From IMG/VR virus record IMGVR_UViG_3300009008_000004, positions 18,004 through 82,003 of that record: DNA of 64,000 nucleotides; one strand, written 5' to 3'. Below the pieces are notes generated by a model that was not told where the DNA came from, ran no database searches, and worked only from the letters and a program-made list of their open reading frames with translations. The stretch comes from a virus (Duplodnaviria; Heunggongvirae; Uroviricota; Caudoviricetes). A program made the position numbers and the translations under genes. Below, piece after piece: positions 3,288 through 63,996 of this stretch (position 1 is its first letter; every line of letters begins with the position of its first letter).

Positions 3288-3306
3288 GGGAGGAAACTCC
3301 CTTTTT
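3288..3306 (+). terminator. rho-independent terminator (GGGAGG-aaa-CTCCC + T5)
   Basis: hairpin followed by TTTTT directly after 3276 stop. Confidence 0.55.
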
Positions 3307-3320
3307 ATCTCATTGAGATA
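3306..3320. promoter_or_regulatory. palindromic operator-like site TATCTCA-TTGAGATA
   Basis: perfect inverted repeat overlapping a TTGAGA -35-like hexamer 18-19 bp upstream of TATAAG. Confidence 0.45.
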
Positions 3321-3335
3321 TTTGGGGCTATGCCG

Positions 3336-3343
3336 GGTATAAG
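3336..3343 (+). promoter_or_regulatory. GGTATAAG box (putative -10-like promoter element)
   Basis: recurrent 8-mer in + strand intergenic regions; here 39 nt upstream of ATG 3375. Confidence 0.4.
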
Positions 3344-3374
3344 AAGGGTAGATAACCAAACGGAGGACAATACA

Positions 3375-4982
3375 ATGAAGACGTTCGAGACCCCACCGGA
3401 ACGGTGCCCCTTCTGCGATAGCATTGCGCTGATGCGCAGTAAAGGCGGGGATCGTGTGCTCTACTCCTGTCGGACAGAGGTCCTGCTCGTGGGAGGGAGG
3501 ATGTCCGAGGAGCGCATGAAGGATGGTGCGGACCGCGCCAAGGAGTGTGCCTTGCGAGAACTGCAGGAGACAAAAAAGCAGCTCGCTGCGCAGGCAACCA
3601 ACGGCGGCAACGCCCAATCCCAGGAACTCGAGGATATACTCGTTTGGATGGGCTGGAAGGACAGGGAAAGCCTCAGCGAATTTGAGGGTCGGTTCACGGA
3701 AGAATGGGGGGAGCTCCGACGTGCGTATGATCGCGAGCAGGAAATCCTTGAGAGATTCTCCATCCCCAAGAAGCTGTCGTTCGCAGAGTTTATTGAGCGT
3801 ACATGCGCTGATGAAAAGCTCAGCCGGGAGACCTTGGAAAAGATGCTCCGCGACGATCGGGCACTGCGCAAGAAATTTGGTGCCAGGGAGGGCGAGAGTA
3901 CGCATACTTTCGTCCAACGCCTCTACACGGAAGCGAACAGCCCCCTCGCCGAAGAAATGGTCTCCCTGGAGGAGGACAATTCGCGGTTAATCCAGGACGC
4001 CGCGAAAGCCCACACCGATGCCCAGAGGCTTGAGGACGAGCTCAAGATAGCTCAGGCAACTATCGATGCGCTGATACAGGGCAACAAGACAATTCGAAAG
4101 CAATTCGGTGCCCGCGAGAACGAAGAGATGTTCCACTTTGTCCAGCGCCTCCACGAGGGCTACACTGCCTACGAACGGGATGATACTAAGTTTCTTTTCG
4201 ACGTCGGGAAGGAGATGTCGGAGCTCCTGCAGGAATACGACAAGCTGGAAGGGGAAACCCTCCGGGAATGGATTGCCCGCCTGCACGCGGGATACCGCGG
4301 GGAGAAGGAAAAAGACTCCACGGACGACACTGTCCACCTGAAGCGCATTACGGTCCACACCACCGCGTACAAGGAAGAGGTACTCTACATCCCCGCCGAC
4401 CTACCGGACTGCCGTGCCTTTGTACACGAACGGTCCAAAGAGGGGCTCCCCGTCTGCTGTAGCACCGCTAAGGAAGGACAGAACTGCGTCTACTTCGGGG
4501 GTTTGATAGGAGATACGCAGGTCCTCTGCGACCAAACGCCTCGCAAGGAAAAAGAGAACACGCGAACCCTGCGTGTACACCGCTCAGACGATGCGGACGA
4601 AGATACACTCTTCGCACCAACCTGCCCGAGCAAGCCTGCTGGTGGGCGTTGCGCTGAACCACGAGGAGTTGAATGTACCTACTTTCGTGGGGCCGCTACC
4701 TCCCCCACGGAGAGTTCGTGGACTACTGCTGAGTGTGCATGCCCAACCGAGGAAGTAAAGCAGCCGCGAAGTATCACTATCCCAACAGCCTACTTGGATG
4801 GCGTCGGGGGAGCCAAAGAGCTGCGAGCCAGCCCACTAACGGCATGCCCCGATGGTACCCGCAGCTTCTGTATGCGGGGAGAGGACAAATGCCCGCACCT
4901 GGGGCCGTGGGAGAAGGATGCCGAAGGCCGCGCAACATGCCACTACCACGAGGACCTCGATGAGGTGCGTGGTCGAGGGTAG
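3375..4982 (+). CDS. large Zn-ribbon/coiled-coil protein with internal repeats and Cys-rich C-terminus
   Basis: N-terminal CPFCDS...CRTE; repeated (R/K)KFGARExE...FVQRL(Y/H) units; many Cys in last 150 aa; RBS GGAGGA. Confidence 0.6.
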   Translation: MKTFETPPERCPFCDSIALMRSKGGDRVLYSCRTEVLLVGGRMSEERMKDGADRAKECALRELQETKKQLAAQATNGGNAQSQELEDILVWMGWKDRESLSEFEGRFTEEWGELRRAYDREQEILERFSIPKKLSFAEFIERTCADEKLSRETLEKMLRDDRALRKKFGAREGESTHTFVQRLYTEANSPLAEEMVSLEEDNSRLIQDAAKAHTDAQRLEDELKIAQATIDALIQGNKTIRKQFGARENEEMFHFVQRLHEGYTAYERDDTKFLFDVGKEMSELLQEYDKLEGETLREWIARLHAGYRGEKEKDSTDDTVHLKRITVHTTAYKEEVLYIPADLPDCRAFVHERSKEGLPVCCSTAKEGQNCVYFGGLIGDTQVLCDQTPRKEKENTRTLRVHRSDDADEDTLFAPTCPSKPAGGRCAEPRGVECTYFRGAATSPTESSWTTAECACPTEEVKQPRSITIPTAYLDGVGGAKELRASPLTACPDGTRSFCMRGEDKCPHLGPWEKDAEGRATCHYHEDLDEVRGRG

Positions 4983-5031
4983 ATGAGCCAGGGGTCCCCC
5001 GGGGAAACTCGGGGGCCCCGCAGGAGATAGA

Positions 5032-5313
5032 ATGGCGAAGCAATTATCCTTTGATGAAAGAACTGCAAACCTTGTAGAGAGAATCAAGCAAGACTTCGGC
5101 CCCGATGGGGAAGCCTTCTGGTGCGCAAATTGTGGGGCGTCTAACCTCGCTAAATTCGAGGTCCGCCGACGAGCATTCGGGGCCGAAGTTATCACCGAAT
5201 GCGCAGACTGCGCATGCCGCGAGACAACGTGGATAGCCCTTGCGAAGGAAGAAACAAAGAAACCGAAAACCCGCCTGCAGAAGATACAGGAGACACATGG
5301 CAAAGAAACGTAA
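5032..5313 (+). CDS. Zn-ribbon protein
   Basis: CANCG...CADCAC. Confidence 0.45.
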   Translation: MAKQLSFDERTANLVERIKQDFGPDGEAFWCANCGASNLAKFEVRRRAFGAEVITECADCACRETTWIALAKEETKKPKTRLQKIQETHGKET

Positions 5314-5794: not shown

Positions 5795-5801
5795 GTAGTG
5801 C

Positions 5802-5825
5802 GTAGGGCTTCGGCCCTACTTTTAT
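5802..5825 (+). terminator. rho-independent terminator (GTAGGGC-ttcg-GCCCTAC + T-run)
   Basis: 7-bp GC stem, TTCG loop, then TTTTAT. Confidence 0.55.
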
Positions 5826-5889
5826 CTATAATGGATATTTTTGTGGGAAAGGCGATAGAAATCGATAGAATGGGAACAGAGAGGGACCA

Positions 5890-6069
5890 ATGAAGATCAA
5901 CGCAACCAGGATGTTCACCGTACTCGTGGACCTGGATGAGTCTGAGGATGAAGTGGAACTAACCGCGAGGTATCATCTCCCCGAGCATTTAGAGATGTAC
6001 GCTCCTGAGATCGCCGCCCAGCTCTACACTATCGCCAACGAAATCTTCAACAGAGAGGAGTTCCACTAA
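5890..6069 (+). CDS. small acidic hypothetical protein (59 aa)
   Basis: hand-translated ORF MKINATRMFTVLVDLDESEDE...; TAATG overlap with next gene. Confidence 0.3.
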   Translation: MKINATRMFTVLVDLDESEDEVELTARYHLPEHLEMYAPEIAAQLYTIANEIFNREEFH

Positions 6070-7735: not shown

Positions 7736-7889
7736 CTTGGTGTTCGGCAAACAGTCAGAAGTAAATGTAGCACAACCGGGAGACCACCTAGTGTGCAAGG
7801 GTGGAGAATTATTCAATCGAGATAAAATGCCAGCAGAAAGGGAACAAACCATTTGCAGGGTCTTTGATTACTTCCCGGGAGGGGACTAA
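7617..7889 (+). CDS. hypothetical protein
   Basis: protein-like ORF (MSKTPRPATLQWTGENLHEV...) overlapping previous ORF out of frame; start uncertain. Confidence 0.3.
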   Translation: MSKTPRPATLQWTGENLHEVILMVGKRRIPNLWLSQSGDNLVFGKQSEVNVAQPGDHLVCKGGELFNRDKMPAEREQTICRVFDYFPGGD

Positions 7890-8077
7890 TGAAGAAGGGG
7901 GAGCTATTGTACACGTTGAACACCCTCACCTCATCTGTTGACGTGTTAGCTATGTCTATGGTCCTCACCATTGATGAGGAGGAGCACCCGAAGCTTAAGA
8001 GGAAGATAAAGGAGTTGCGGAAGCAGACCCGCGAACTATCAGATGCTCTGCAAAAGGCAACGGAGATTTACAAATGA
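7889..8077 (+). CDS. small hypothetical protein
   Basis: 62-aa ORF, ATGA overlap. Confidence 0.4.
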   Translation: MKKGELLYTLNTLTSSVDVLAMSMVLTIDEEEHPKLKRKIKELRKQTRELSDALQKATEIYK

Positions 8078-9551: not shown

Positions 9552-10579
9552 TCTGGAAATTTGGGATGAAAGGGTGTCACGAACTACAGGAGATACTTGG
9601 GCAGTGCGGGTTTGCAGTTGGTGCTATCGATGGGATCTTCGGTCGTATGACCGAAGCCGCGGTATTGGCATTCCAGGCTAAGCATGGATTGCAGCAAGAT
9701 GGGGTAGTGGGGCCCCGGACAATTGACATGATGGATATGATGTTGAAGCACTCCGAGAGCTACATGGAGACCCCGGAAATCGATACCTTCCATGAAGCAA
9801 TTGGGTTGCCGGCGTTGCTCCCGCAAAACAACTTGGACCGACGGATATCCGACGCCATCAAATTGATGCAAACCTGCGATGATGGACAGGGGTGTAGATA
9901 CGGTGGGTGGATTGATGCCTACCAATTTGGCAAGGACAAGTTCAAGAACGGCGACGAGTTCCCGATCCCTAAGGTCGGAAGGATTATCCCCAACGCAGGA
10001 GTTGTGAAGCCTGCGCATGGGGGAACATGCAGCCCTTGGGCAGGACTGTTCTTGGGGTGGTACTTGTGTGTGAACCAGGACTTCAACTTCCGCATTGGTA
10101 GGAATGCAAGGTGGATGGCTACATGGCCCCACGACAAAGTGTACAAGGGAACTACGATCCCCGGGTACGGCGACTATTGCGAGGTCAATGGAAAGTTGCG
10201 GTTGGAGCACCACCCATTGAACAAGCTGTATGGAGATTGGGAGTGGCTCAACAAGATCAACATCATTGAGATGGACCACCACATTGTCCTTGTATTGAAG
10301 GTTGGTGGTGAGGACGGTCTGCACCTCGAGGATCCCTACAATGAGGGAGTACCGATGAAAAGCGGGTTGTGGAGACTTGGGGCAGATGGCTACTACCCGA
10401 AAGTCAATGGGAAGAAGTATTACAGTGGGACAAAGCAGACGCTCAAGCGCATTAATGCGACAATGCGGTGTAGCCAGAAATGGGATTTTTACCGGGTTAC
10501 AGACATGAATGAAGAGACTTGTAACCCCGATGCAGGACCTTGGGCCGGTCGTACCCCGCGAAAATTGGTCTTGGAGTAG
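9548..10579 (+). CDS. cell-wall hydrolase: N-terminal peptidoglycan-binding domain + CHAP/NlpC-like Cys-His peptidase
   Basis: LGQCGFAVGAIDGIFGRMTEAAVLAFQAKHGLQQDGVVGPRT = PG_binding_1 signature; later GGTCSPWAGLFLGWY (Cys) and EMDHHIVLV (His). Confidence 0.65.
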   Translation: MIWKFGMKGCHELQEILGQCGFAVGAIDGIFGRMTEAAVLAFQAKHGLQQDGVVGPRTIDMMDMMLKHSESYMETPEIDTFHEAIGLPALLPQNNLDRRISDAIKLMQTCDDGQGCRYGGWIDAYQFGKDKFKNGDEFPIPKVGRIIPNAGVVKPAHGGTCSPWAGLFLGWYLCVNQDFNFRIGRNARWMATWPHDKVYKGTTIPGYGDYCEVNGKLRLEHHPLNKLYGDWEWLNKINIIEMDHHIVLVLKVGGEDGLHLEDPYNEGVPMKSGLWRLGADGYYPKVNGKKYYSGTKQTLKRINATMRCSQKWDFYRVTDMNEETCNPDAGPWAGRTPRKLVLE

Positions 10580-10585: not shown

Positions 10586-11218
10586 ATGGGCTACGTCAAA
10601 CGTAAGCAGTTCTTTGGTCCCGAGAACCGCGCTTCTCTCATTGTTTTCAGGGAGAAAGACGATTATCCCGCGCTCGTTTCCAATGGTCAATGGGCCGTAG
10701 TTGGTCCACGCTCGTTAAGTATTATCCCTTCTATCCTAAATCTGTGGTTGAAGAGTGTGCAGGTGCGAATAGAAAAAGGGGATATTCGATTAGGCGATAT
10801 GACTAAGCCACACTTCACCAAAGTGATCCGCGAATTGATGAGAGGTGAAGCGGAATGCATGCATAACTGGGACGGTGATGTTTATGAAGCATGCTTCCAA
10901 CCGGAACCGAGACAGAGGGAGTTGGTCTACGAAAGATTGTTGAAACTGGATGAAACCGCGACTTTGATTCGTCGACCACTACTAAGTACGAGTGGGGCCA
11001 AGCTCGGGAAAGATGGTACCCCCGTTGCCTATGCATGGGAGGTTACCTACCCCCGACCGACAACGTTTTGGTTGTACTCAGAGTATGTGGGCTTGCTTGC
11101 CCAACACGGAGGATTCATGCTCGAGTATGCGCCGGACACCAGGGCCGCGCTTGTAAAAGACAAGAAGAATAGCCTTATAGGTGCTATTGCCCCATACCAT
11201 CCCCGCGGAGAAGCATAG
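10586..11218 (+). CDS. hypothetical protein
   Basis: 210-aa ORF. Confidence 0.5.
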   Translation: MGYVKRKQFFGPENRASLIVFREKDDYPALVSNGQWAVVGPRSLSIIPSILNLWLKSVQVRIEKGDIRLGDMTKPHFTKVIRELMRGEAECMHNWDGDVYEACFQPEPRQRELVYERLLKLDETATLIRRPLLSTSGAKLGKDGTPVAYAWEVTYPRPTTFWLYSEYVGLLAQHGGFMLEYAPDTRAALVKDKKNSLIGAIAPYHPRGEA

Positions 11219-11233
11219 AGCCTACCTTTACGA

Positions 11234-11250
11234 ATATCTAATCGAGATAT
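11234..11250. promoter_or_regulatory. quasi-palindromic operator-like site ATATCTAATCGAGATAT
   Basis: same 17-mer as 34304-34320 in inverse orientation; overlaps TCGAGA -35-like hexamer. Confidence 0.45.
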
Positions 11251-11263
11251 TTCGACCAATCCG

Positions 11264-11271
11264 GGTATAAG
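11264..11271 (+). promoter_or_regulatory. GGTATAAG box
   Basis: 18 bp after TCGAGA hexamer. Confidence 0.4.
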
Positions 11272-11280
11272 GGTTTCGAA

Positions 11281-11313
11281 AGTAGCTAGAGTACCCGTAG
11301 GGTACTCGTAGCT
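11281..11313 (+). promoter_or_regulatory. 33-nt imperfect palindrome / 5' UTR hairpin (AGTACCC-gta-GGGTACT core)
   Basis: inserted between promoter box and conserved leader ataaccaaacggagga. Confidence 0.4.
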
Positions 11314-11336
11314 AAATAACCAAACGGAGGATCTCT

Positions 11337-11621
11337 ATGCCCACACCCAAGACACTGTTAGCAATACTATTTGGCATTGTGGTTATGGCCGGGTTTGTAT
11401 TCGGCCTGACCCTCATGAACATCGACAAAACACCCTCGGCAGCAATTGCAGAGGACACGCCCCCCGCGAATCAGATAGGCGTGGCCAACACCTTCTGCAT
11501 GGAAGACGTAGTCTGTGTGTACTACACACACGCCAGCGGAGTTGGGCTCGTCTGTGATTTTATGGGGGAGAGCTCACTATCCCGGAAATGCGCTCATGCA
11601 AAAAAAGTGGAAGTGGAGTGA
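11337..11621 (+). CDS. small membrane protein
   Basis: LLAILFGIVVMAGFVFGLTLM TM helix; leader ataaccaaacggagga identical to gene 3375 leader. Confidence 0.5.
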   Translation: MPTPKTLLAILFGIVVMAGFVFGLTLMNIDKTPSAAIAEDTPPANQIGVANTFCMEDVVCVYYTHASGVGLVCDFMGESSLSRKCAHAKKVEVE

Positions 11622-11851
11622 CTGGTGAAACCTGGGGGCACCGGATGAGGAGCAAGCCACTCTTCGGGGCACCGGTCTTGGTAGAACCACCGGACAGCCC
11701 TACCAAACCCACGGAGACATTGTAATGCGTAAAACACTAACCTCTATGTTTGATGAGTATCCAGGACCCGCGACGGAAATGGGTGCCTGCGAGGAAAGTT
11801 AGGATGTGATGGGAGGGGTCCTTCGGGGCCCCTCCCGGGAAGGTAACCTTT

Positions 11852-12475
11852 ATGAGCTCAAAGAGATTAGCAAAGCTCACCAAAAACAAAAAGCCGCAGG
11901 AAGAGCAGGCACCCCCACTCTATAGTGGCTCGGGACCCCCACCCTATAGTGACTCGGGAGCACGCTATTTCCTCTACCACTCTTATGGGGGATGGACAGG
12001 AAAAATTGGTGTCGATGGCGGAACCTATGGTTCGCTAGAGTTCGGCAAAGCCTGGGTACTTAGCTTCGACGGTCCAAGAGACAAATATATCCTCCGCGCT
12101 ATGGAACACATGGATAACAGTAAACACTACACACTAACCCTTTGGGCAATTTGGAACTACGACCCATATACCCGAAAATTCGTGTGTGATCATACAGACT
12201 ACAAAAAAGTCTTAGGTCTCCAGGAAGAAACCGTAGGGCTCGATGAGGGCGGTACTACGGATATCCATACTGCGAGTAAGGAGCAGCTCCGGGAAGAACT
12301 CAGCCGGCTACGGCAAGGTATTCTTCTTAGAGATTCCCACCGATACGTAACCGACGTCGGACTTTACGATAAAAGCGAGATGATCGCACACTGCGCATTC
12401 TGCGATCGTGAGCAAGGACAGGAGTGTAGAAAGCACTGCCCCACTAAAACCCACCCCGCCCACAACGAAAAGTGA
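11852..12475 (+). CDS. hypothetical protein, paralog A (SKRLAKLTK N-terminus, C-terminal Cys cluster)
   Basis: N-terminal SKRLAKLTKNKK and C-terminal HCAFC...C...HC; paralogous to next gene. Confidence 0.5.
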   Translation: MSSKRLAKLTKNKKPQEEQAPPLYSGSGPPPYSDSGARYFLYHSYGGWTGKIGVDGGTYGSLEFGKAWVLSFDGPRDKYILRAMEHMDNSKHYTLTLWAIWNYDPYTRKFVCDHTDYKKVLGLQEETVGLDEGGTTDIHTASKEQLREELSRLRQGILLRDSHRYVTDVGLYDKSEMIAHCAFCDREQGQECRKHCPTKTHPAHNEK

Positions 12476-12485
12476 GGTACTGCCT

Positions 12486-12992
12486 ATGGGCTCAAAAAGA
12501 CTCGCCAAACTTACAGAAAAAAAGAGGGAGGAGCTCCTCTCCCCGTCCCCGGATACCACATTCTCCCTCTTCTACAAAGGATCGGGGTGGGCATACAAAG
12601 TTGATAGTGTCGGCGGAACCTACAGCGAACCAACCTTCGCAAACCGGCTTATCTTCGAGCACACTCAGGCTGCGCCGATCCAGAGGGCTTTTAGGGAAAT
12701 ACAAACCCATGCGCCGGACCTAGCGAAAAACCTCTGCCTGTACGCCATTCAAAAGGGAAAGGAGACGTCGGCCACGCTTGTTTGTACAGCAGCAGATGAG
12801 ATGTTTGTCGTCGGCCAGCACCCCGAGATTAGACGCCTCCGACGAGCACTTGCAGCACGGGATAAAGACCGCTGGTTCTTTGACAGCTCTGGTATCATTC
12901 GCTGTAGTTACTGCCGGCTACCTGAGATGGACGGTTGTGATATTACCTGCCCTACAAGGGCGTACCCCATTATTTCGAAGGAGAACACCTAA
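12486..12992 (+). CDS. hypothetical protein, paralog B
   Basis: MGSKRLAKLTEKK...; C-terminal CSYC...C...C; tandem duplicate of 11852-12475. Confidence 0.5.
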   Translation: MGSKRLAKLTEKKREELLSPSPDTTFSLFYKGSGWAYKVDSVGGTYSEPTFANRLIFEHTQAAPIQRAFREIQTHAPDLAKNLCLYAIQKGKETSATLVCTAADEMFVVGQHPEIRRLRRALAARDKDRWFFDSSGIIRCSYCRLPEMDGCDITCPTRAYPIISKENT

Positions 12993-13357
12993 TGGATTAC
13001 CGACACTCTTTCTGCCTGTGTACTGGGTGGGATGTGGAAACCAATGAAGACGGGCGATGCCTCAAATGTGGGGCAACAGCGGTTGGAGAGGAGATAGAAG
13101 AGCTGGCCCACCAACGCCGCAAGCGGAAGTTGGAGGTTGGGCAGCTGAGACAACAACTGCTGACGAAGGATGATGAGATACTCCGCCGGGATCGGTGGAT
13201 CGACTTGGCAATAGCCTCTGTCGTCGTAAAGGCTGCGTCGGGCGAACACGCAAACCGCCTGCTCAAGACGTTCGCTAAGGAGAGTGGTCATGCCCCGCGA
13301 GCAGCAGACGAGGCAGCAGTAAAGGAGGGGAAGTATGCCAAACGTAAAATGTCCTGA
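12992..13357 (+). CDS. Zn-ribbon/coiled-coil protein
   Basis: CLC...CLKCG then helical region; ATGA-type junction. Confidence 0.45.
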   Translation: MDYRHSFCLCTGWDVETNEDGRCLKCGATAVGEEIEELAHQRRKRKLEVGQLRQQLLTKDDEILRRDRWIDLAIASVVVKAASGEHANRLLKTFAKESGHAPRAADEAAVKEGKYAKRKMS

Positions 13358-13700
13358 GTGCGGGAGCCCCGGAAAGGTAATCCCTATCGGGGCGGACGAT
13401 ACTGTCCAGGGCAATGGTACCTGGGAAATAACCCGATTTAGCTGCGGGCGGCAGGAAGCACGAGATGCCGAAGGGAAGCTATCCCACGACTCGCCTATGA
13501 TGAGGATCCAGCGAGGGTATGGTTGGCTGCAGGAATGTCGGGAGCGGAAGGCCATGATAACCGCCCGCGCCCTCCAAATCGTCTGCGGGGAACACAGTAT
13601 TTGCACCGGGGAAGATAGCGGGCTACTCTTAAAGGGATTGCTCAAGCAAGCTCAACAGGAGTTAGCCAATGCGAATGGGTGGACTATTGAAGACGACTAA
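13335..13700 (+). CDS. Zn-ribbon protein
   Basis: KCPECGSPG...FSCGRQ. Confidence 0.45.
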   Translation: MPNVKCPECGSPGKVIPIGADDTVQGNGTWEITRFSCGRQEARDAEGKLSHDSPMMRIQRGYGWLQECRERKAMITARALQIVCGEHSICTGEDSGLLLKGLLKQAQQELANANGWTIEDD

Positions 13701-15025: not shown

Positions 15026-15053
15026 TTATCCCATTGCGATATTTGGAGGAAAT

Positions 15054-20530: not shown

Positions 20531-20559
20531 TATCTCAACTGAATAATTTGGAGGGGGAG

Positions 20560-23884: not shown

Positions 23885-23990
23885 CGGCTAAGACCCGTGT
23901 AGTTTACAGCCGGTTAGAGCAACGTCACCGCGACGTCAATATTAGAATACCGCCCCAAAAAATATCTGCAAGGAATAAAGTGGTCCTTCT

Positions 23991-27685: not shown

Positions 27686-27765
27686 AACTTGACGGATGGG
27701 GTCCCGGAGATGGAAAATATCAAGTTGAGATATTCCGCTCCGGGGCCTACATCCATGGGGGAACA

Positions 27766-28708: not shown

Positions 28709-29095
28709 ATGTGGAAGATACTTGCTCAAGCTGCCCCGAACGCGCCGGCTGTGCAGCACATTGCCCCCGTTGCGAATGATGTGAACTGGTGGATTATCGC
28801 CTTAAGTATCGCAGGTGCCACCGCAATGTTCACCTTCGGTTTCAGCAAAGTGATACGGTTTGCCATACAAGGATCCGAGCGAGAAGGAGTATACGAAGTA
28901 ATCGCGCGCGCAATCTTGGTTGCTATCTGCACTGCCGCAGGCGGTATTGCTGGATGGCGTAGCTGGGATCCCTGGCTTGGCGGACTTGCAGGAATGGTAG
29001 GCTCTGGTGCCTCCACAACGATCATGTATTATCTCAATAAAATATTTAGCAGATTCGCAGCCGGTAACGGGAGCAACCGTCCGCCAGCCGCGTAA
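28709..29095 (+). CDS. small integral membrane protein
   Basis: three hydrophobic segments. Confidence 0.5.
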   Translation: MWKILAQAAPNAPAVQHIAPVANDVNWWIIALSIAGATAMFTFGFSKVIRFAIQGSEREGVYEVIARAILVAICTAAGGIAGWRSWDPWLGGLAGMVGSGASTTIMYYLNKIFSRFAAGNGSNRPPAA

Positions 29096-29408: not shown

Positions 29409-29887
29409 TGAAAATCGTATTTTTGGACATAGACGGGGTCCTGGTAAATAAGCAATACAGCGCCCTCCAGGCGAAGGACATGCGGAAATTTGACCCCGAC
29501 TGTGTAAAACAACTCAACAGGCTACTAGAGGCGGGAGACGCAAATGTGGTCGTGTCCAGCACCTGGCGTCTCGGATACACCAGCCTGCAAGACCTACAGC
29601 ACATGCTTTGGGACCAAGGTGTTGCCTGCGACGTCGTAGGGACTACGCCCCAGCTGGATGGTGTTCGCGGGGAAGAAATACAGGAGTGGCTCGATGTATC
29701 CGATTTGGATATTGAGTCCTTCGTTATCCTGGACGACGACAGCGATATGGCCCATCTGCTCCCCTTCCTCGTAAAAACTACCTTCGACCGCGGGCTGATT
29801 GCAGAGCACGTCGACCGCGCCCTCGAGGTACTACGGGGGGACCATGAGGAAACCAAGATCAAACAAACCCTGGAAGACGGAACCTGA
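29408..29887 (+). CDS. HAD-superfamily phosphatase-like protein
   Basis: MKIVFLDIDGVLVN (motif I DxDGxx) and FVILDDDSD (motif IV). Confidence 0.55.
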   Translation: MKIVFLDIDGVLVNKQYSALQAKDMRKFDPDCVKQLNRLLEAGDANVVVSSTWRLGYTSLQDLQHMLWDQGVACDVVGTTPQLDGVRGEEIQEWLDVSDLDIESFVILDDDSDMAHLLPFLVKTTFDRGLIAEHVDRALEVLRGDHEETKIKQTLEDGT

Positions 29888-32942: not shown

Positions 32943-33164
32943 CACCAACATCTGCGAAGGGGGCCTGGTTGGCAGGGCCGGGCCCCCTACAGCAGTTTAT
33001 CCCAATTAGATATTCGAGCAGAAGAGGGTAAAGGAGTAGGTGTTGCTGTAAGGATGACAGCAGGAATCTCCTTCAGTATACTACTGCTACTTCAACCAAT
33101 CCGCGTATGGCCGGGAAACTACTCCCGGCTGTGCCGCCTGGGTTGAACGGCGATGGAGGTAACG

Positions 33165-34279: not shown

Positions 34280-34303
34280 GAACGTGCGGGTGGGCTGCTC
34301 AAA

Positions 34304-34320
34304 ATATCTCGATTAGATAA
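34304..34320. promoter_or_regulatory. quasi-palindromic operator-like site ATATCTCGATTAGATAA
   Basis: reverse complement of the 11234-11250 site; just upstream of E2-like gene RBS. Confidence 0.45.
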
Positions 34321-34351
34321 TTGGGCAGCCTGCCCAACAAGGAGGAACCAG

Positions 34352-42543: not shown

Positions 42544-42796
42544 TGTTTCACATACTGTCGATTTTTTTCTGCAGTAGTGATGGCGCCTCTCAGACGCCAT
42601 AACGAGCATTTTATTTTTCATTTCTCTGGTGTTTATAAGGTAGTGGTAATTAAAAACTGGTTTTTCCAGTTGAACTGCCTTAACCCGAACGAGAAAAATC
42701 CCATTAAGATATTGATCGGATCCAGCGGGTATGGCACAGTATTAGGCGTCCCATACTTGTGCGGGTCAACAACCACAATTGGAGGTACTCCAGGCT
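42544..42796. promoter_or_regulatory. AT-rich intergenic region with palindrome ATGGCG-N9-CGCCAT and T-runs (candidate partition site/origin/promoter)
   Basis: only sizeable AT-rich non-coding stretch; lies immediately upstream of ParB-like operon. Confidence 0.35.
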
Positions 42797-43090
42797 ATGC
42801 AACAGTTGCTTCCTCAAATCCGGCAGTTTGCCGCAGACAGGACAAGGGAGGCTGCGAGCGCTCTAAATGCTCTTGGCCGTGTCGTCAAAGTTCTCCAGGT
42901 GCTCGACTCCGAATACCAGGAGACGTACCAAACCCTTACGGTACGAGTCGATTCCGGGAAGTACGAGGGGCAAGTCCTGCCCGTCGTACAGATCCAGCTG
43001 GATGGTAAAGGGGTTACCATTTGGGCTACCCACAACGAAAACCCCAAGAAATTTCGCGTCACAGGCGAATTGGAGGTCACACAAGCATGA
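42797..43090 (+). CDS. hypothetical protein
   Basis: ATG 8 nt after GGAGG; 97 aa. Confidence 0.5.
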   Translation: MQQLLPQIRQFAADRTREAASALNALGRVVKVLQVLDSEYQETYQTLTVRVDSGKYEGQVLPVVQIQLDGKGVTIWATHNENPKKFRVTGELEVTQA

Positions 43091-44016
43091 GCAAGAAAAC
43101 CGTACACCTGGTCCTGGAGGATATCCGGTTGGATTCCGATGGTATGTCCAATTGCCGATCGGCTATGGAGGGTATCGAGGAGCTGGCACAGGACATCGTA
43201 GATGAGGGATGCCTGCTCAACCCCATTGGGGTATGGCAGCCCCCGGGAAAGGACTACTACGTCTTGAACTATGGCTACCGTAGGCTCCATGCGCTGAAGT
43301 GGCTCAAAGAACACCGACCCAAAGATTTCATCTCCCTTGACTTTGAGGAGGCTGGGAAGATCCCATGTGCCGCATACGGTGGGGATTTGAACGCCGCATT
43401 GATCAGGAACCTCTCTGAGAACCTGAAGCGGAAGCGGGTAAACCCGGCAGATCTGGTTACCCGGGTCGGGTACCTGCACGAAGTCCGGGGGATGACGGAG
43501 ACACTAATCGCGAAGACCATTGGGATTGCCCAGTCCCAAGTCTCAGGTATGCTGGGAGTCCACCTTGGGTGCTCCAAGGCAGTTATTGGTGCCCTCCGGC
43601 AGAAGCTCATCAACCTGTCCAACGCCAAGAAGTTCAGCAAGCTCCCACACGAGCAGCAGGATGAATTGCTGGAGAAGCTGCTTGAGCAGGACCCTGAGCA
43701 GGCAAAGAAGATCAAGAAGCTTTTGGCCAAGAAGACCGAGGCCTCCGTGCGTCCGGGTGTAAAGACTCTGAAGTCTACTCTTGGGCAGGTAGCTGCACGT
43801 AAGGAAGAGCGGGACAAGGAGTACCGCGATGGAGTCATTGCCGGCCTCAAGTTTGCATTGGGTATCATTGATAAGGTCGAATGGCTGTTTGCTCCGGCAC
43901 ACGCAGTTCCGGAAGATGCAGCTCCTCAGGCCCCGACGAGACTCGTTCGTGCGATGAAACCGAAGAAGAAGTTCGCTGGGAAAGCGCAAGAAAAGGAGAC
44001 CACCAAACCAAAGTGA
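43087..44016 (+). CDS. ParB/Sulfiredoxin-fold (ParB N-terminal domain) protein
   Basis: NPIGVWQ...YYVLNYGYRRLHALKWL = ParB GxxRxxA box; HTH-like middle; Lys-rich C-terminus; ATGA overlap. Confidence 0.6.
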   Translation: MSKKTVHLVLEDIRLDSDGMSNCRSAMEGIEELAQDIVDEGCLLNPIGVWQPPGKDYYVLNYGYRRLHALKWLKEHRPKDFISLDFEEAGKIPCAAYGGDLNAALIRNLSENLKRKRVNPADLVTRVGYLHEVRGMTETLIAKTIGIAQSQVSGMLGVHLGCSKAVIGALRQKLINLSNAKKFSKLPHEQQDELLEKLLEQDPEQAKKIKKLLAKKTEASVRPGVKTLKSTLGQVAARKEERDKEYRDGVIAGLKFALGIIDKVEWLFAPAHAVPEDAAPQAPTRLVRAMKPKKKFAGKAQEKETTKPK

Positions 44017-46554: not shown

Positions 46555-47163
46555 ATGCGCCACAACGCACCGATGCTCCATATAGAGGGCATTGTGTACC
46601 CAACGCAGGCGAACGGCCCAGGAAAGCGCATCCTTGTTGCTGTCCGTGGGTGTTCTCTGCAATGCCCCGGGTGTGTAAACAAACATCTATGGGATCGTAC
46701 CCTCGGCGGAAGATACGTAGACCCAGCGAAGTTCGTGGATGAGTTGCTGAAGACAACGGGACTCTCTCGGGAGGATGCCACTAATGTCGGGCTTACAATC
46801 TCCGGGGCAGAGCCACTAGACCAAGCAGCCGCTCTCTTCATCCTACTTGTCCAAGCAGCCCTGACCTTCAGGGATATCATCGTCTTCTCCGGTTACACCA
46901 TCGAGGAGATCGAGGAAGACGCTCTGAAGAGCTCTTGCCTGGCATGGCTGGACGCAATTATCACAAATAGATATTTGCGGGAGCAGCACGCTACACAGGG
47001 CCTCAAAGGGTCTGCCAATCAGGAAATCATCGTCAACCCCTACCGGAACAAGCTCACTCTGCAAGAGTTGGAGGATTTCGAGCATGTAGTTGAGATCCAC
47101 CCAATCGGGGTGATAACCGGCTTCCCATCAAAGGAAGAGGAGGAAGCATGTCAGCATTCATAG
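46555..47163 (+). CDS. radical-SAM activating-enzyme-like protein (NrdG/QueE-like CxxxCxxC)
   Basis: YPTQANGPGKRILVAVRGCSLQCPGCVN: CxxxCxxC cluster in NrdG/QueE-type context; RBS AGGAGG. Confidence 0.55.
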   Translation: MRHNAPMLHIEGIVYPTQANGPGKRILVAVRGCSLQCPGCVNKHLWDRTLGGRYVDPAKFVDELLKTTGLSREDATNVGLTISGAEPLDQAAALFILLVQAALTFRDIIVFSGYTIEEIEEDALKSSCLAWLDAIITNRYLREQHATQGLKGSANQEIIVNPYRNKLTLQELEDFEHVVEIHPIGVITGFPSKEEEEACQHS

Positions 47164-50298: not shown

Positions 50299-50315
50299 TT
50301 ATCTCAACGAGATAA
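50299..50315. promoter_or_regulatory. perfect palindrome TTATCTC-AAC-GAGATAA
   Basis: in 66-bp gap upstream (minus-strand sense) of gene 49532-50254; same family as sites at 3306, 11234, 34304. Confidence 0.5.
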
Positions 50316-55180: not shown

Positions 55181-55706
55181 TCTTCTTCTCCTGTTTAGGC
55201 TGGTATTTCTTTACCAGGTAAGCCCCAAGGGCCCCGAGTCCAGCGCCTCCTACACCAAGCCCCAACGTCGCGAGAAGCCTACGGGAACGTGGCATACGTC
55301 GGATCTTACGTGAAACCAGGGGAAGGAGTGCTCGAGCAGAAAGTGTGCCCGCAGTACCCCCAAAGGTAGCGGCCATCGCTATCTGCTTTTTACTGTACTT
55401 CTTCCTTCTTCCACGAACCGAAGCATACACCAATTTGCCCGTCGGGGCTGGCGCTGGAGCGCGCCTCTGGACTCGGTTATAGGAACCGAGACTCCTCGCC
55501 AAGTACTTGTTGTCCGCTTGTGGTACAGACAGGTCTGTGCCGGCACCAACCCCCGCAGGCTGCATTGGGTTCTGCGTTTGCTTCTCGGGGGAACCAATGG
55601 CTACTCTGGATTCCGGAGTACCAGAACCCTCAGACCCACCCTGGAAACGACGGGAGCTCAGCTTTACCAACGTTTCCTCAAAGGTATGTTCGGGCGTCCA
55701 ACTCAT
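55173..55706 (-). CDS. hypothetical protein with C-terminal TM helix
   Basis: LATLGLGVGGAGLGALGAYLV near C-terminus. Confidence 0.45.
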   Translation of the reverse strand: MSWTPEHTFEETLVKLSSRRFQGGSEGSGTPESRVAIGSPEKQTQNPMQPAGVGAGTDLSVPQADNKYLARSLGSYNRVQRRAPAPAPTGKLVYASVRGRRKKYSKKQIAMAATFGGTAGTLSARALLPLVSRKIRRMPRSRRLLATLGLGVGGAGLGALGAYLVKKYQPKQEKKSE

Positions 55707-56602
55707 AGTCTGTACACTCCTCGCAGAGCATCATACTCTGGGTCCTTATCGTGACCGACATCCTGGGGGTTTGTAAATAGCCGCTGCGGAGCGGGGAACA
55801 TCGCAATCTTCTCCGCATCCGTCATATTCAAGGGGAGCTTGTACTCTATATCTCCCCGGGGGATCGCATGAAGAGGGAAGTCTTGGCGGACAAGAGCCCT
55901 TCCCTTCTCAACACGACGAATTCCTTCTCCTATCCGCCACCTACGATTTTCCGAGTCTATAACAATCCATCGCGGGTGAATTTCCGGATAATTTGACAAA
56001 CGACCTGTGGCGTTGATGTTCTGGATTTCTCCGAGGTCAGCAGTCGTAGTAGCTTCCGGGGGCATGATTATCTGCATGTTGAGTTCCATGGGACGATGGA
56101 AGCCCCCCACCCATCGAGTATCATAGCAGGCGAGGCACATGGATGTGCTTTTCCGCATCGTAACCGGATCAACACAGGTGCAGATTTGGCCGAAGGTCCT
56201 AATGGGGAATACCCACACTGTACGGCCTGTATACTCTTCCAACCGAATTTGGGCGTTCCGGGCCATCTCCATAGCGTACAAATCCAACTCTGCCCGAAGA
56301 GTTACTCCCCCCTGGGGAGGGTAGTACGCAGATGGGTTTCCCGCCCGTCGCTTATCAATTATCCTAATGCGATAAAACCATTGGCGGTACTGAGATTTTT
56401 GCCCGCGGAGGGTTGTATCCCGGAAACGGAAAGTATCGGAAAAGGGCCCTACGAGGGTAACGTACCCGCTGTGTTCATGGTCGCTGCGCTCAATATAGAA
56501 GTCGTAGTCGAAAAGATCCTCGGTTGTAGGCGCAATTTCCCAGTATAGATCCAGGTAATCCAGATCAAAGCTACGTACCCGAAAATTTTTGACCTCCAAC
56601 AT
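55703..56602 (-). CDS. structural protein (hypothetical)
   Basis: 299-aa ORF. Confidence 0.5.
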   Translation of the reverse strand: MLEVKNFRVRSFDLDYLDLYWEIAPTTEDLFDYDFYIERSDHEHSGYVTLVGPFSDTFRFRDTTLRGQKSQYRQWFYRIRIIDKRRAGNPSAYYPPQGGVTLRAELDLYAMEMARNAQIRLEEYTGRTVWVFPIRTFGQICTCVDPVTMRKSTSMCLACYDTRWVGGFHRPMELNMQIIMPPEATTTADLGEIQNINATGRLSNYPEIHPRWIVIDSENRRWRIGEGIRRVEKGRALVRQDFPLHAIPRGDIEYKLPLNMTDAEKIAMFPAPQRLFTNPQDVGHDKDPEYDALRGVYRL

Positions 56603-58226: not shown

Positions 58227-58606
58227 TACAACGACCTCGTCTTAGTGCCCTGGTATACATCATTATACAGGCGGATCTGCAACACAGCATCGGAAACAGC
58301 CCCAATGGCATACGAGAGAACCAACGGTATTGCCAGGCCCTTGGTATAGAACAGGACTCCTTGCCCTGTTAGCTGCCAGTGGGCAGGGACAGTGCCCGCG
58401 ATGTTCTCCCCAACACGGAAGAGTGTACCGGCTACTGCGGGGGTAAATGATGCCAGGAGATCGTAAGTATCCCCGGCATTACCGGACAATACTTGGACAA
58501 CCGCTGCCGAGAAATTCTCGGAGTACGGAATGTCATAAGTGTCCGTGGTATTCTTCGTCAACGTAAGCGATATGTTGCGCCGGCATGTTGCGGTGGTAGA
58601 TACCAT
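58226..58606 (-). CDS. small structural protein, paralog B
   Basis: tandem paralog of 57843-58226. Confidence 0.5.
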   Translation of the reverse strand: MVSTTATCRRNISLTLTKNTTDTYDIPYSENFSAAVVQVLSGNAGDTYDLLASFTPAVAGTLFRVGENIAGTVPAHWQLTGQGVLFYTKGLAIPLVLSYAIGAVSDAVLQIRLYNDVYQGTKTRSL

Positions 58607-59073
58607 TAGTTGAGCTCCTCGCTACGGTCGAAGTTAGGCTCGTAGAAGTCGCTGGTAACTCCCCCACCCATGGCCTGCCGGACATTAAGGCGAGCAATCA
58701 GCTTCATCTTTCTACGCTCCCACTCCGCGGTCAACCGATTTATCAAATTGAGATAAATTGGTGCCTTGTCCGATTCATTGACCTGCACACCCTGCCCATC
58801 GGAGTACGTAAGATGGTTTCGGGCCTGCAAAAACGTGACCGATTCGAGCAAGTATTTCGCGGCACCAATCTTCAATAGAGAAATCGCGGGGAAGGTATCA
58901 GGAGTAAACGCCCCCAAAGGGGAATCCAAATTAAAGTCCTCAATGGCATCAAGAATCGCCATAGCGATGGAACGCTTGCTCGACTCCTCATCTTTAATAA
59001 GACGGTTGAGTTCGGGGAAGTCCCGCAAGTACGCACGAACTACCTCAACAAGCTGTTCCAGACGTGACGCCAT
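58606..59073 (-). CDS. hypothetical protein
   Basis: 155-aa ORF. Confidence 0.5.
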   Translation of the reverse strand: MASRLEQLVEVVRAYLRDFPELNRLIKDEESSKRSIAMAILDAIEDFNLDSPLGAFTPDTFPAISLLKIGAAKYLLESVTFLQARNHLTYSDGQGVQVNESDKAPIYLNLINRLTAEWERRKMKLIARLNVRQAMGGGVTSDFYEPNFDRSEELN

Positions 59074-61064: not shown

Positions 61065-61077
61065 TGTTCTCCTCCTA

Positions 61078-61725: not shown

Positions 61726-61736
61726 AGCTCTCCTCC

Positions 61737-62084: not shown

Positions 62085-62553
62085 CTCCTACAAGGTCGAG
62101 TACCGTCTTCACTGAAGCCGGCGACGACTTGGGAGCTACGGGGGCCGAAGCCTCCTTGATCTTGCTAACCCACCCTTCGAGGGTCCCCTTGATCTGCTCA
62201 TTAGCGTCGTCTGTTGAATCGGAGGTATCGCTCTGTACCTCGGCCTCGGGAGTGAGGTGGGCCAGTTTCTGGAGGACATGCTCTCGAATTTCTGCGGTAT
62301 CCCCAGCAGGAGCTGCCTCCGCCTGCTTGACGGAAGCAACTTTCTGCTTGAGATATTCTCCGAGATCAAGCTGATCCCCATCAGACTCTACCTGCTTCTC
62401 AGCAGCCAGGGCCTCGATGATACCCTCCACGGACTGTGCCACCTTCTCCACGAACCCAAGGTCCAACGGAACGACCTCCTGAGTGGACTGATTCCCAGAA
62501 TCGATGTTGCGCGCTTCCAGGTCATTCACCAGTAGGTCTTGAAGTGACGACAT
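62068..62553 (-). CDS. acidic hypothetical protein
   Basis: 161 aa, highly acidic. Confidence 0.45.
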   Translation of the reverse strand: MSSLQDLLVNDLEARNIDSGNQSTQEVVPLDLGFVEKVAQSVEGIIEALAAEKQVESDGDQLDLGEYLKQKVASVKQAEAAPAGDTAEIREHVLQKLAHLTPEAEVQSDTSDSTDDANEQIKGTLEGWVSKIKEASAPVAPKSSPASVKTVLDLVGGGTDE

Positions 62554-62565
62554 ATCCGCTCCTCC

Positions 62566-63483
62566 TTATTCGGTTTCCTGCAGAGCTGCGATCATCTCGT
62601 CGACCGGGTAACCGGCTTCGGCGAGCTTCTCGAAAGCGTGGATGGTTACTGCTTCATCCAAATCTTCGTCTGCAGCGACTTTTTCCTGGCCAAGCTCAAA
62701 CATGCCAAGAATTTCATTGGCCCGCTCATCAGCAAGAGCGTCAAGTGCAGAGCCAGTCTTCCTCTTACCCAAAGAATAACTACCACCTGCGAGAGCAGCA
62801 GTGGGGATACCATAAGCGGTACCAGTCTGGAGGCCACCAAGCAGCATCTTGTTGCGGCCTGCTTTGCCCTTCTTGGCTCCCAGGCCAAAACGCTTAGCAG
62901 CGATTTCGCCGGCCCGCTTTTTGCCCTTGCTGCTCATGGTGCCCTTCTGGCCCATGTGCTTGGCACGTTCGCCCAAATACTTCAGCTTCTTGCTTTCGCC
63001 GCGAAGAGCATGCCCGGCACGCAGATTTTTGGCGGTGTACGCGCCCTTTACTCCACGCAGAAGCTTCTCCAGCCATGCGGGAACCGCTTCCTTTTCCATC
63101 TCAGTGAGCTCTGATTCGGTGTACTCGTTTCCGTCTTCATCGACATAGATGGATTCGGTCTCTTCCTGCTCAGAAGCAATTTTGGTCAACTCATCCATGA
63201 GCCCGTGAGCCATCACGCGGCCATAGGCGTCATAAGCAGCGGCAACCTTCTGCAGCTCTCCGTCGCCCATGCCTTCCTGCTCTCCAGCTTCTTTCTGCAG
63301 GTGACCCTGCTCTTCCAGGTCCTGCACAACGGCGGTTTCCAGTTCATCCAGTTGTTCGGGGGTCAGATCGCTAAGATCTACTTCGTACTCGGCAGCAAGC
63401 TTCTCAATGAACTTAGCCTGCGCTGCCTTTTCCAGAGCATCCTGCCCGTCTGTACCATAGATGGTTTCGAGAATGTCACTCAT
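62566..63483 (-). CDS. putative scaffolding protein
   Basis: 305 aa with acidic N- and C-terminal helical regions and basic Gly/Lys-rich centre. Confidence 0.45.
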   Translation of the reverse strand: MSDILETIYGTDGQDALEKAAQAKFIEKLAAEYEVDLSDLTPEQLDELETAVVQDLEEQGHLQKEAGEQEGMGDGELQKVAAAYDAYGRVMAHGLMDELTKIASEQEETESIYVDEDGNEYTESELTEMEKEAVPAWLEKLLRGVKGAYTAKNLRAGHALRGESKKLKYLGERAKHMGQKGTMSSKGKKRAGEIAAKRFGLGAKKGKAGRNKMLLGGLQTGTAYGIPTAALAGGSYSLGKRKTGSALDALADERANEILGMFELGQEKVAADEDLDEAVTIHAFEKLAEAGYPVDEMIAALQETE

Positions 63484-63545
63484 AGTTTTCTCCTCCTAAG
63501 GACATACAAATACAACGATCGAAAAAAAGTTATCGGCGAGAGTAA

Positions 63546-63566
63546 TGGACTTTTAGGAAAGTCCGT
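63546..63566. promoter_or_regulatory. palindrome GGACTTT-tagg-AAAGTCC
   Basis: 7-bp inverted repeat in intergenic region upstream of scaffold-like gene. Confidence 0.3.
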
Positions 63567-63621
63567 GTGAGCCTGCTTTCCAGCTTTTCCGGCCCGTTCG
63601 AACCACAGTGTATACTGGTTT

Positions 63622-63996
63622 CTACGTAAAAGGCAAGCGATTGAGCACACTTTTTATCTCATTTTGCCGTAATCCTGCAGCTACAAGGCCAGAAGAGAAC
63701 AAAACTGGATGCTTCGCTATGAAGCGCTGAAGCATGTTTTGGGGTACGCCTTTCTTCTCTTCTTTACGCAGGTGTGCGCTATACGCGTACACTAAAGGAA
63801 GTAGGAGTGCCCACGCGGGAACCCGCTTAAGGGCACTACCAACTACGGATGCTGACTTCTCCAAACCCCCATTTACGACAATATCATCCAAATGCTCAAG
63901 CGCTTGTCGCCGGTAGTCATTATAGAGACCCCCAAGCATTCTATCGAGCTCCCCGCCCAAAGGAGTCTCTACGTCGGCAGGTTGCGCTTCCGCCAA
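63622..63996 (-). CDS. hypothetical protein
   Basis: 124-aa ORF at window edge. Confidence 0.4.
   Translation of the reverse strand: MAEAQPADVETPLGGELDRMLGGLYNDYRRQALEHLDDIVVNGGLEKSASVVGSALKRVPAWALLLPLVYAYSAHLRKEEKKGVPQNMLQRFIAKHPVLFSSGLVAAGLRQNEIKSVLNRLPFT

Follow-up and report, generated by a model that had tools for sequence, protein, structure and literature searches.

The dyad box is a palindromic DNA element with a 15-bp core that recurs throughout a 64,000-nt stretch of a tailed-phage genome (Caudoviricetes; positions 18,004 to 82,003 of IMG/VR record IMGVR_UViG_3300009008_000004), referred to here as the window. We conclude that this palindrome family is most likely the multi-copy dyad operator of a phage global regulator, a control element of a familiar type in an unfamiliar phage. 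Judged from its sequence and placement, the box is probably the site of one homodimeric DNA-binding protein of the helix-turn-helix (HTH) type that would act genome-wide and would probably itself be phage-encoded. A first-pass annotation of this DNA had described five intergenic sites under a single regulator co-controlling a ubiquitin-like (Ubl) operon and parts of the structural module. Its operator-like reading survives in that the element is dyad-symmetric and concentrated between genes, but the scope was too narrow: the window holds about 17 sites, not five, and the 83 kb as a whole about 20, lying at or inside many unrelated genes. The sequence covered comprises the window and 9.5 kb on each side, about 83-84 kb of the genome of this uncultivated ~183-kb phage.

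The dyad box is over-represented and concentrated between genes

An alignment of 22 sites, drawn from the window, its flanks and two relatives and oriented by the local genes, yields the 21-bp dyad consensus AAwTATCyCAwTGrGATAwTT, with TATC-N7-GATA as its minimal form. Genes were placed on a codon-usage-based map, and 7.1% of the window is intergenic. The frequency of the motif is far above expectation, with 12 matches to TATC-N7-GATA in the window versus 0.51 expected. Eight of the 12 fall within the intergenic fraction (binomial P = 2.6e-7), and the density of sites is ~25-fold higher between genes than inside them. In the sequence covered, neither outcome that the first-pass annotation named as refuting, a frequency at the expected level or equal occurrence in coding regions, is seen. 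The stricter pattern TATCT-N5-AGATA has 4 matches versus 0.03 expected from dinucleotide-preserving shuffles, a count that 0 of 100 shuffles reach, and all four are intergenic; the half-site TTATCTC on its own is ~2.4-fold enriched (16 versus 6.7 expected). Enumeration of all dyads with 4-nt arms and gaps of 3-11 places TATC-N7-GATA as the commonest in the window and joint top in the related locus L096.

A symmetric matrix recovers 16 sites of at least 13 bits (0.5 expected) and 15 of at least 15 bits (0.15 expected) in the window. Intergenic positions account for 11 of its 17 top sites, a bias that is partly circular given that the matrix was trained on eight intergenic sites, whereas the exact-pattern count is not circular. 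Over-representation of the strict pattern, the minimal pattern and the matrix matches alike excludes a chance origin of the box. Host elements were also rejected as its source, since DnaA, IHF, Fur, LexA-type and other host boxes are not known to match it in half-site or spacing.

Inspection of all intergenic spacers in gene orientation revealed further degenerate copies, and word enrichment in the oriented spacers returned two signals, AGATATT/GATATTT and the promoter-like word GGTATAAG. The flanking 2 x 9.5 kb contribute one more exact site (window-equivalent 64951, intragenic) and several degenerate ones, including a site at window-equivalent 65695 that occupies a 33-bp spacer. Five exact copies in the 83 kb are intragenic. 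These look like true members, because A/T is present on both flanks in 12 of the 13 exact matches, intragenic ones included, although the flanks lay outside the search pattern.

Four of the sites first described are full palindromes as claimed (3306-3320, TATCTCATTGAGATA; 11234-11250, ATATCTAATCGAGATAT; 34304-34320, ATATCTCGATTAGATAA; 50299-50315, TTATCTCAACGAGATAA). The third had been called the exact reverse complement of the second, which is true of the 15-bp core but of only 16 of the 17 positions in the 17-mer. All four are intergenic, as had been said of every site; the fifth, at 63650-63663, is not, for it falls inside a 493-aa gene truncated by the edge of the window, close to the 3' end and 28-41 nt 5' of the stop codon (window 63622). 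We rejected this fifth site as a family member: it is a half-site with no second arm, it scores <9 bits with the site matrix and it is intragenic. The 14-mer CTTTTTATCTCATT that it has in common with 3301-3314 is present at both places, but the sharing means little because 70 distinct 14-mers recur in the window, versus 10-23 in shuffles.

Symmetry of the box suggests a site for a homodimer

Comparison of each alignment column with its mirror complement across the 22 sites reveals no clear asymmetry. The lowest uncorrected P, 0.046, belongs to one flank column and is attributable to a downstream Shine-Dalgarno sequence that adds G there. The half that deviates from the consensus is promoter-distal as often as promoter-proximal, and sites 2 and 3 point in opposite directions with respect to their own genes. 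The box is therefore without direction, which argues against a promoter proper, and a directional promoter for a phage polymerase was rejected on the basis of the same symmetry and inversion. The centres of TATC and GATA are 11 bp apart, one helical turn, so that a bound dimer could place its two recognition helices in consecutive major grooves on the same DNA face.

A palindrome of this kind might alternatively act as a hairpin, either as an RNA stem-loop in termination, processing or translation control or as an extruded DNA promoter like those of the N4 virion RNA polymerase. The four best sites can indeed adopt a stem of 5-7 bp with a loop of 3-5 nt (-4.2 to -5.1 kcal/mol for the two best), a Shine-Dalgarno sequence follows 3-4 nt after the end of five sites, and three sites extend into long GC-rich hairpins. 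Pairing is nevertheless no better than with shuffled partners: in a 9-pair stem, 69.2% of cells are paired versus 71.0% when partners are shuffled among sites, with 427 of 500 shuffles at least as high, and one of the two inner pairs is disrupted in 11 of the 22 sites and the other in 15. Folded as RNA, the 21-mers reach between -5.1 and -0.1 kcal/mol, several being effectively unfolded (-0.1, -0.2), no T-run follows the stem and an Rfam search with the box gave no match. Conservation concerns the bases of each arm themselves (TATC, GATA and the A/T flanks) and not their complementarity, and boxes abut the ribosome-binding site (RBS) because spacers of 28-33 bp force them to. Each N4 virion RNA polymerase promoter has an extrudable 5-7-bp stem with a 3-nt loop, whereas only ~4 of the 22 boxes here can form such a stem, and the 84 kb covered contain no recognisable RNA polymerase gene. 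We consider action as a hairpin very unlikely. An intrinsic terminator or structured RNA was likewise rejected, given the weak folds, the arms without covariation, the missing T-run and the lack of an Rfam family; the genuine terminators, at 3286-3303 and 5802-5819, form hairpins of their own that adjoin the box. A binding site for a homodimer is preferred over a hairpin or directional promoter because the box is symmetric, its arms do not covary and half of the sites cannot fold.

Three boxes (27718, 34305 and L096:18346) sit exactly at the apex of GC-rich hairpins (~27694-27754, ~34284-34338 and L096 ~18321-18379), which fold at -31 to -38 kcal/mol with z values of about -5.5 to -6. None of these hairpins has a T-run, and one is position-conserved between two phages.

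A promoter-like word stands in register with four boxes

The second signal from the spacers, GGTATAAG, has 11 matches in the window versus 1.09 expected, 10 of them on the plus strand and 8 in spacers (Table 1). Relatives with as little as 43% protein identity, dyad-less ones included, have it in front of the same genes (AAA ATPase, XRE). No conserved -35 element is visible at the copies that lack a dyad, and sigma-70 consensus promoters are depleted (4 versus 10.6 expected). Because GGTATAAG recurs before the same genes even where there is no dyad, it is a stronger candidate for a promoter than the box and does not depend on it; it looks like a putative clade-wide, -10-only promoter box.

At 3306, 11235, 32998 and 42697, the dyad ends 13-15 bp 5' of GGGTA, the start of the -10-like GGGTAtaag (GGGTAAAGG at 32998 and GGGTATGGC at 42697), and the exact pattern GATA-N13-GGGTA has 2 matches versus 0.00 expected. 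For sites 1 and 2, the first reading of the sequence had noted -35-like hexamers, TTGAGA and TCGAGA, at 19 and 18 bp from TATAAG. These are as described, and the promoter-proximal half of each box does overlap the -35 position of the promoter-like GGGTATAAG box; the sigma-70 consensus scan did not call either promoter. The repressor or activator geometry proposed on this basis is found at four sites, but most others are without a -10-like box in register, so that in-register sites make up 4 of ~12 intergenic ones, with the promoters themselves predicted only. At 15027, 20531 and 65695, as at L096:9370 and L001:5351 in relatives, the box occupies a 28-33-bp spacer, with apparently co-transcribed genes on either side, in the order stop codon, box, RBS, start codon. 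Sites 1 and 2 also share a promoter-leader cassette (3306-3367 and 11235-11331), in which GAGATATTT-N-CCGGGTATAAG precedes a 16-mer, ATAACCAAACGGAGGA, that is the same in both and has the RBS at its end; in the second copy, the leader contains an additional hairpin, GAGTACCC-GTA-GGGTACTC.

The register with GGGTA raises the question of activation. The box could serve as an activator site or -35 substitute for a temporal promoter class, in the manner of a T4 MotA box or a class II activator, where a bound factor would recruit polymerase to GGGTAnnnn 13-15 bp downstream. Four boxes in register fit this proposal, as do the imperfect -10-like boxes at two of them (GGGTAAAGG, GGGTATGGC), which activator-dependent promoters would be expected to have, the lack of a conserved -35 at dyad-less GGTATAAG and the depletion of sigma-70 consensus promoters. 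Most boxes, however, have no in-register -10-like element and others are intragenic, while several end 12-14 nt before a start codon and leave no room for such an element. In the related phage NODE_722, ~85 bp and a terminator hairpin separate the orthologue of site 2 from GGTATAAG, and perfect copies of GGTATAAG stand without a dyad at 1255, 13922, 17586, 31020 and 40929. An activator role is thus, in our estimation, rather unlikely.

Box positions and inner bases differ between related phages

Relatives were compared through loci L096 and L106, which together represent NODE_722 (protein identities 35-71%), and through the further lineages L001, L107 and L108. NODE_722 has strong intergenic sites at L096:5088 and L096:9370 (both TATCACGTCTTGATA), L096:18346 (TATCACAAGTAGATA) and L106:9636 (TATTGCGTCTTGATA), together with a strong intragenic site at L106:9132. 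Five positions are shared with the window phage: 3' of the orthologue of gene 10586-11218 (11235 = L096:5088), 3' of the orthologue of 14681-15025 (15027 = L096:9370), between the orthologues of 26769-27131 and 28154-28690 (27718 = L096:18346), 5' of the ParB-like operon (42697 = L106:9636) and in a 33-bp spacer (window-equivalent 65695 = L001:5351). The outer bases of the box are kept while the inner bases are lineage-specific, TATCTC in the window phage versus TATCAC in NODE_722, which gives the 21-mer forms AAATATCTCATTGAGATATTT and AATATCACGTCTTGATATTT, respectively.

Boxes 34305 (E2-like gene), 32998 (44-aa gene), 20531 and 50300 (structural gene) are without counterparts in the orthologous spacers. 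Since 34305 and 50300 are missing from relatives, the proposal that one regulator governs both the Ubl operon and the structural module does not describe a conserved feature; any such shared control of the E2-JAB-E1 operon and the structural gene would be lineage-specific at best. Farther away, ~1.1 Mb of distant relatives around capsid or AAA genes contain 0.18-0.28 matches per 64 kb, which is the chance level, and the syntenic relatives L097 and L105 (43-45% AAA identity) have zero boxes. A search of more distant relatives for an analogous multi-copy dyad of other sequence found none.

These comparisons also bear on whether the boxes are linkers at gene-cassette boundaries that promote recombinational shuffling of modules, with protein binding secondary. 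At 4 of 4 position-conserved sites with compared flanks, at least one of the flanking genes lacks a homologue in the other phage, and a five-gene indel lies directly 3' of 15027 = L096:9370. Non-homologous junctions are expected by chance, however, because ~40% of genes lack homologues between these phages, and 4 of 4 corresponds to roughly P = 0.17. The inner bases differ between phages, lowering homology, and neither the dyad symmetry nor the -10-like register is explained, which makes the linker proposal the least probable of those considered here.

Two encoded proteins are candidate binders

The window encodes only two recognisable DNA binders, a ParB-like protein and an XRE protein (Table 1). 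Pfam and PHROGs searches of 40 proteins, 20 of them conserved in a relative, yielded no further DNA-binding candidates. The ParB-like product of 43087-44016 matches the PDB ParB structure 4umk over residues 28-201 (phmmer, E 3.5e-5), with weaker matches to KorB and Noc and a match to Pfam HTH_ParB, and its GYRR and ENLKRK motifs are kept in 4 homologues. By sequence it is a ParB/KorB/Noc-fold protein. Its gene is followed by an AAA+ ATPase (PF00004), not a ParA, in a pair that is conserved in at least four related phage lineages; no ParA or KorA partner is present in the Pfam record of the window.

A box or related dyad is found within ~1 kb upstream of the ParB-like gene in four lineages: at 42391 and 42697 in the window, at 9132 and 9636 in L106, at 9136 in L107 (the only strong site in that 21-kb locus) and, as a related single dyad, at 9594 in L108. 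A further box at L107:10431 lies within ~1 kb of, or inside, the ParB-like gene. This recurrence is suggestive of a link between the protein and the motif. In L108 the spacer 5' of the ParB-like operon (9556-9666) also contains a 14-bp perfect inverted repeat, TTCTCTTTGGTATT-N23-AATACCAAAGAGAA, around the single degenerate dyad TTTCTATTTGAGACA.

The XRE protein had been put forward for binding assays as a possible regulator of the motif. Its own promoter holds only a 6.6-bit look-alike (23963-23977), in a segment that is missing from the XRE promoter of the relative; such a role is unsupported. A homologue search with the XRE protein returned itself alone. The NODE_722 orthologue is 38% identical and has a different recognition helix; as two data points, the pair is uninformative for co-variation of regulator and motif.

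From these observations, the ParB/KorB-like CTPase-fold protein 43087-44016 is a tentative candidate for the binder and slightly better than the XRE protein 24030-24299, whose candidacy appears unlikely on sequence. An unrecognised phage protein or a host protein is about as likely to be the binder as these two together.

If the ParB-like protein is the binder, two further readings arise. The boxes may be loading or operator sites of the phage's own ParB/KorB-like CTP-dependent clamp, which would give the phage a KorB-style circuit for silencing or timing genes throughout its genome, acting from boxes at promoters, between cistrons and within genes; we regard this as possible but doubtful. Alternatively, they may be centromere-like or clamp-loading sites (parS, NBS or the dispersed N15-sopC type) with which a ParB-like protein serves positioning, segregation or compaction. 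Here a genuine ParB-fold protein is encoded, the sites are palindromic, dispersed, of ParB-site length and tolerated inside genes, and at least one of them stands beside the parB-like operon in three lineages. But the window has no ParA-type partner, the adjoining ATPase being a classical AAA+ (PF00004), a centromere has no need of an intergenic bias or a -10-like register, and there is no evidence of a plasmid-prophage lifestyle. A centromere role is accordingly improbable.

Table 1. Dyad boxes, promoter-like words and candidate binding proteins in the window
Feature	Position	Strand	Score (bits)	Context
Dyad box TATCTCATTGAGATA	3306..3320	.	24.3	3' of terminator hairpin 3286-3303; 14 bp upstream of GGGTATAAG (3335-3343); downstream gene 3375-4982
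Dyad box TATCTATAATGGATA	5823..5837	.	17.3	Abuts terminator hairpin 5802-5819; upstream of gene 5890-6069
Degenerate dyad box TATTCAATCGAGATA	7810..7824	.	15.6	Intergenic; upstream of gene 7889-8077
Dyad box TATCTAATCGAGATA	11235..11249	.	22.4	13 bp upstream of GGGTATAAG (11263-11271); position kept at L096:5088
Dyad box TATCCCATTGCGATA	15027..15041	.	19.3	Occupies 28-bp spacer from stop codon 15025 to RBS of gene 15054-15413; kept at L096:9370
Degenerate dyad box TATCTCAACTGAATA	20531..20545	.	15.6	Occupies 29-bp spacer 5' of gene 20560-20916
Dyad box TATCAAGTTGAGATA	27718..27732	.	19.5	Apex of GC-rich hairpin ~27694-27754 (-37.7 kcal/mol, z -6.0); position and hairpin kept at L096:18346
Degenerate box TATCTCAATAAAATA	29030..29044	.	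15.1	In 3' end of gene 28709-29095; membership uncertain
Box TATCCGATTTGGATA	29697..29711	.	15.7	In gene 29408-29887; sole exact-core match without A/T on both flanks; membership uncertain
Dyad box TATCCCAATTAGATA	32998..33012	.	21.9	3' of GC-rich hairpin; 13 bp upstream of GGGTAAAGG (33026-33034); precedes 44-aa gene
Dyad box TATCTCGATTAGATA	34305..34319	.	22.4	Apex of GC-rich hairpin ~34284-34338 (-31.1 kcal/mol, z -5.7); 32 bp 5' of E2-like gene 34352-35818; not kept in relatives
Weaker dyad box AATCCCATTAAGATA	42697..42711	.	13.0	15 bp upstream of GGGTATGGC (42727-42735); precedes operon of 97-aa gene, ParB-like and AAA+ genes; counterparts L106:9636 and degenerate L108:9594
Dyad box TATCACAAATAGATA	46959..46973	.	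18.8	A/T on both flanks; in gene 46555-47163
Dyad box TATCTCAACGAGATA	50300..50314	.	22.9	Intergenic, between 1400-aa gene and gene 49532-50254 (minus); missing from orthologous spacer of L001, L106, L107
Box TATCCTAATGCGATA	56360..56374	.	15.0	A/T on both flanks; in gene 55703-56602 (minus)
Dyad box TATCAAATTGAGATA	58741..58755	.	20.9	A/T on both flanks; in gene 58606-59073 (minus)
Rejected half-site (fifth site of first-pass annotation)	63650..63663	+		In 3' end of 493-aa gene
GGTATAAG, spacer copies	1255, 3336, 11264, 13922, 17586, 23991, 31020, 40929	+		Most just 5' of genes
GGTATAAG, other copies	6426, 23009 (+); 40453 (minus)			6426 and 23009 intragenic
XRE/Cro-type HTH protein, 89 aa	24030..24299	+		HTH_3 at 1.5e-8; among solved structures, closest to the controller proteins C.AhdI and C.BclI
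ParB/KorB/Noc-family protein	43087..44016	+		N-terminal GYRR arginine patch, ENLKRK box, helix-turn-helix

Comparison with known systems and a proposed mode of action

The consensus half-site of lambda operators also begins TATCAC. Like the operators of lambdoid Cro/CI (XRE-family) proteins, which overlap the -35/-10 region, the box is a dyad with half-site centres about one helical turn apart. In contrast, lambdoid operators are clustered by the repressor genes in an arrangement of 3 + 3 and are 17 bp long with TATC-N9-GATA, whereas the arms here are separated by N7 and the sites are spread genome-wide, and the promoter of the XRE gene itself has no good site. The CIR elements of phiC31 are 17-bp inverted repeats with many intergenic copies in the early region, are bound by the phage repressor and often lie near highly conserved early promoters that are not sigma-70-like. 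The pairing of the dyad with GGTATAAG resembles this arrangement, but sequence, phage type and host differ, phiC31 being a 41-kb temperate Streptomyces phage.

Cluster A mycobacteriophages (L5 gp71, Bxb1 gp69) possess >20 operators or stoperators at promoters and in short intergenic spaces, where they stop elongation; these 13-bp asymmetric sites, whose orientation follows transcription, are bound by the monomeric two-domain repressor of a temperate phage (PMC9283540, PMC3029335). Among heteroimmune cluster A phages, operator specificities drift (PMC3029335). The ~20 boxes in 83 kb, many of them in 28-33-bp spacers and with inner bases that differ between related phages, share these traits. 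The box is nonetheless not a member of the stoperator family, because stoperators are asymmetric, orientation-dependent and monomer-bound, whereas the box is a symmetric 15/21-bp dyad without orientation bias. Unlike in the stoperator phages, no Pfam or PHROG match suggests such a repressor here, and no sign of lysogeny is seen.

KorB of plasmid RK2 is a ParB-family CTP-dependent clamp that loads at the palindromic OB and represses nearby and distant promoters (PMC11790492), and Noc is described as nucleating on 16-bp NBS sites (PMC8429893). The dyad box resembles KorB-OB, Noc-NBS and ParB-parS in that palindromes are dispersed (13-16 bp in the known systems, a 15-bp core here), a ParB-fold protein is encoded and a box precedes its operon. 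It differs in that its sequence is unrelated to OB (TTTAGCGGCTAAA), no KorA or ParA was found and the genome is that of a ~183-kb phage, not a plasmid or chromosome.

For the global regulator that we favour, two modes of action can be envisaged. At 3306, 11235, 32998 and 42697, a bound dimer would cover the -35 region and, we infer, would most simply repress initiation. At the spacer, hairpin-apex and intragenic boxes no promoter fits, and for this reason the protein may there block an elongating polymerase, as at stoperators, or load and spread, as KorB/ParB clamps do.

Several observations weigh against this interpretation. Turnover of sites between relatives is high, and sites 3 and 4 are not conserved. 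Three boxes at the apex of very stable GC-rich hairpins are unexplained by a plain operator model. The box 5' of the ParB-like operon scores low (13.0 and 10.0 bits) and is missing in L107, and both the ParB-like and the XRE candidates are tied to the motif by proximity at most. Lastly, the promoter role of GGTATAAG is only predicted, in a genome where sigma-70 consensus promoters are depleted.

Genome context

The window corresponds to a rotated, reverse-complemented and circularly permuted piece of a 182,679-bp ENA scaffold that appears circular or terminally redundant. Almost none of the phage proteins receive Pfam or PHROG assignments. A megablast of 12 kb of the window against a phage collection gave zero matches, and no relatives were returned when viral contigs were searched with the E2-like and ParB-like proteins or metagenome contigs with a 535-aa protein. 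Capsid relatives (45-49% identity) lie on contigs of 175-195 kb that are binned into metagenome-assembled genomes (MAGs) of Deltaproteobacteria, Acidobacteria and Anaerolineales, which is probably mis-binning. Host inference through the capsid relatives in GTDB genomes pointed to several phyla, with no prophage among them and no host indicated, and neither an integrase nor prophage evidence for lysogeny was found for this phage.

Two AAA+ genes of the window have intein-bearing relatives. The 587-aa AAA+ ATPase (17618-19381) has thousands of homologues that their sources label proteasome-associated ATPase, some of them from MAGs of the Candidate Phyla Radiation (CPR), and its NODE_722 orthologue (L096 10001-12598) carries an HNH-containing intein. 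The second AAA+ gene (44032-45639) is intein-bearing in the L107 lineage (10905-13568). The 691 bp 3' of this second gene (45640-46330) hold no called gene, and they begin with sequence similar to that found before a 196-aa gene in a relative (L106 12486-12622); this stretch may harbour a gene that is unannotated and starts unusually, or else one that has decayed.

Implications for phage biology

In a phage whose proteins are nearly all without recognisable function, two DNA words, the lineage-specific dyad box and the clade-wide GGTATAAG, provide a first handle on transcription units and their control. The idea that the E2-JAB-E1 operon is specifically co-regulated with structural genes is not borne out, its box being one among many and lacking counterparts in relatives. 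Were the ParB/KorB clamp circuit true, a mechanism known to date from plasmids and chromosomes, and not from large phages, would operate in a ~183-kb, apparently non-temperate phage. Should one regulator indeed occupy these symmetric sites, ~20 or more in number and some of them in spacers without a promoter, it would offer a directly testable protein-DNA pair, the 21-mer versus two candidate proteins, and stoperator- or KorB-style control would extend to a new group of phages.

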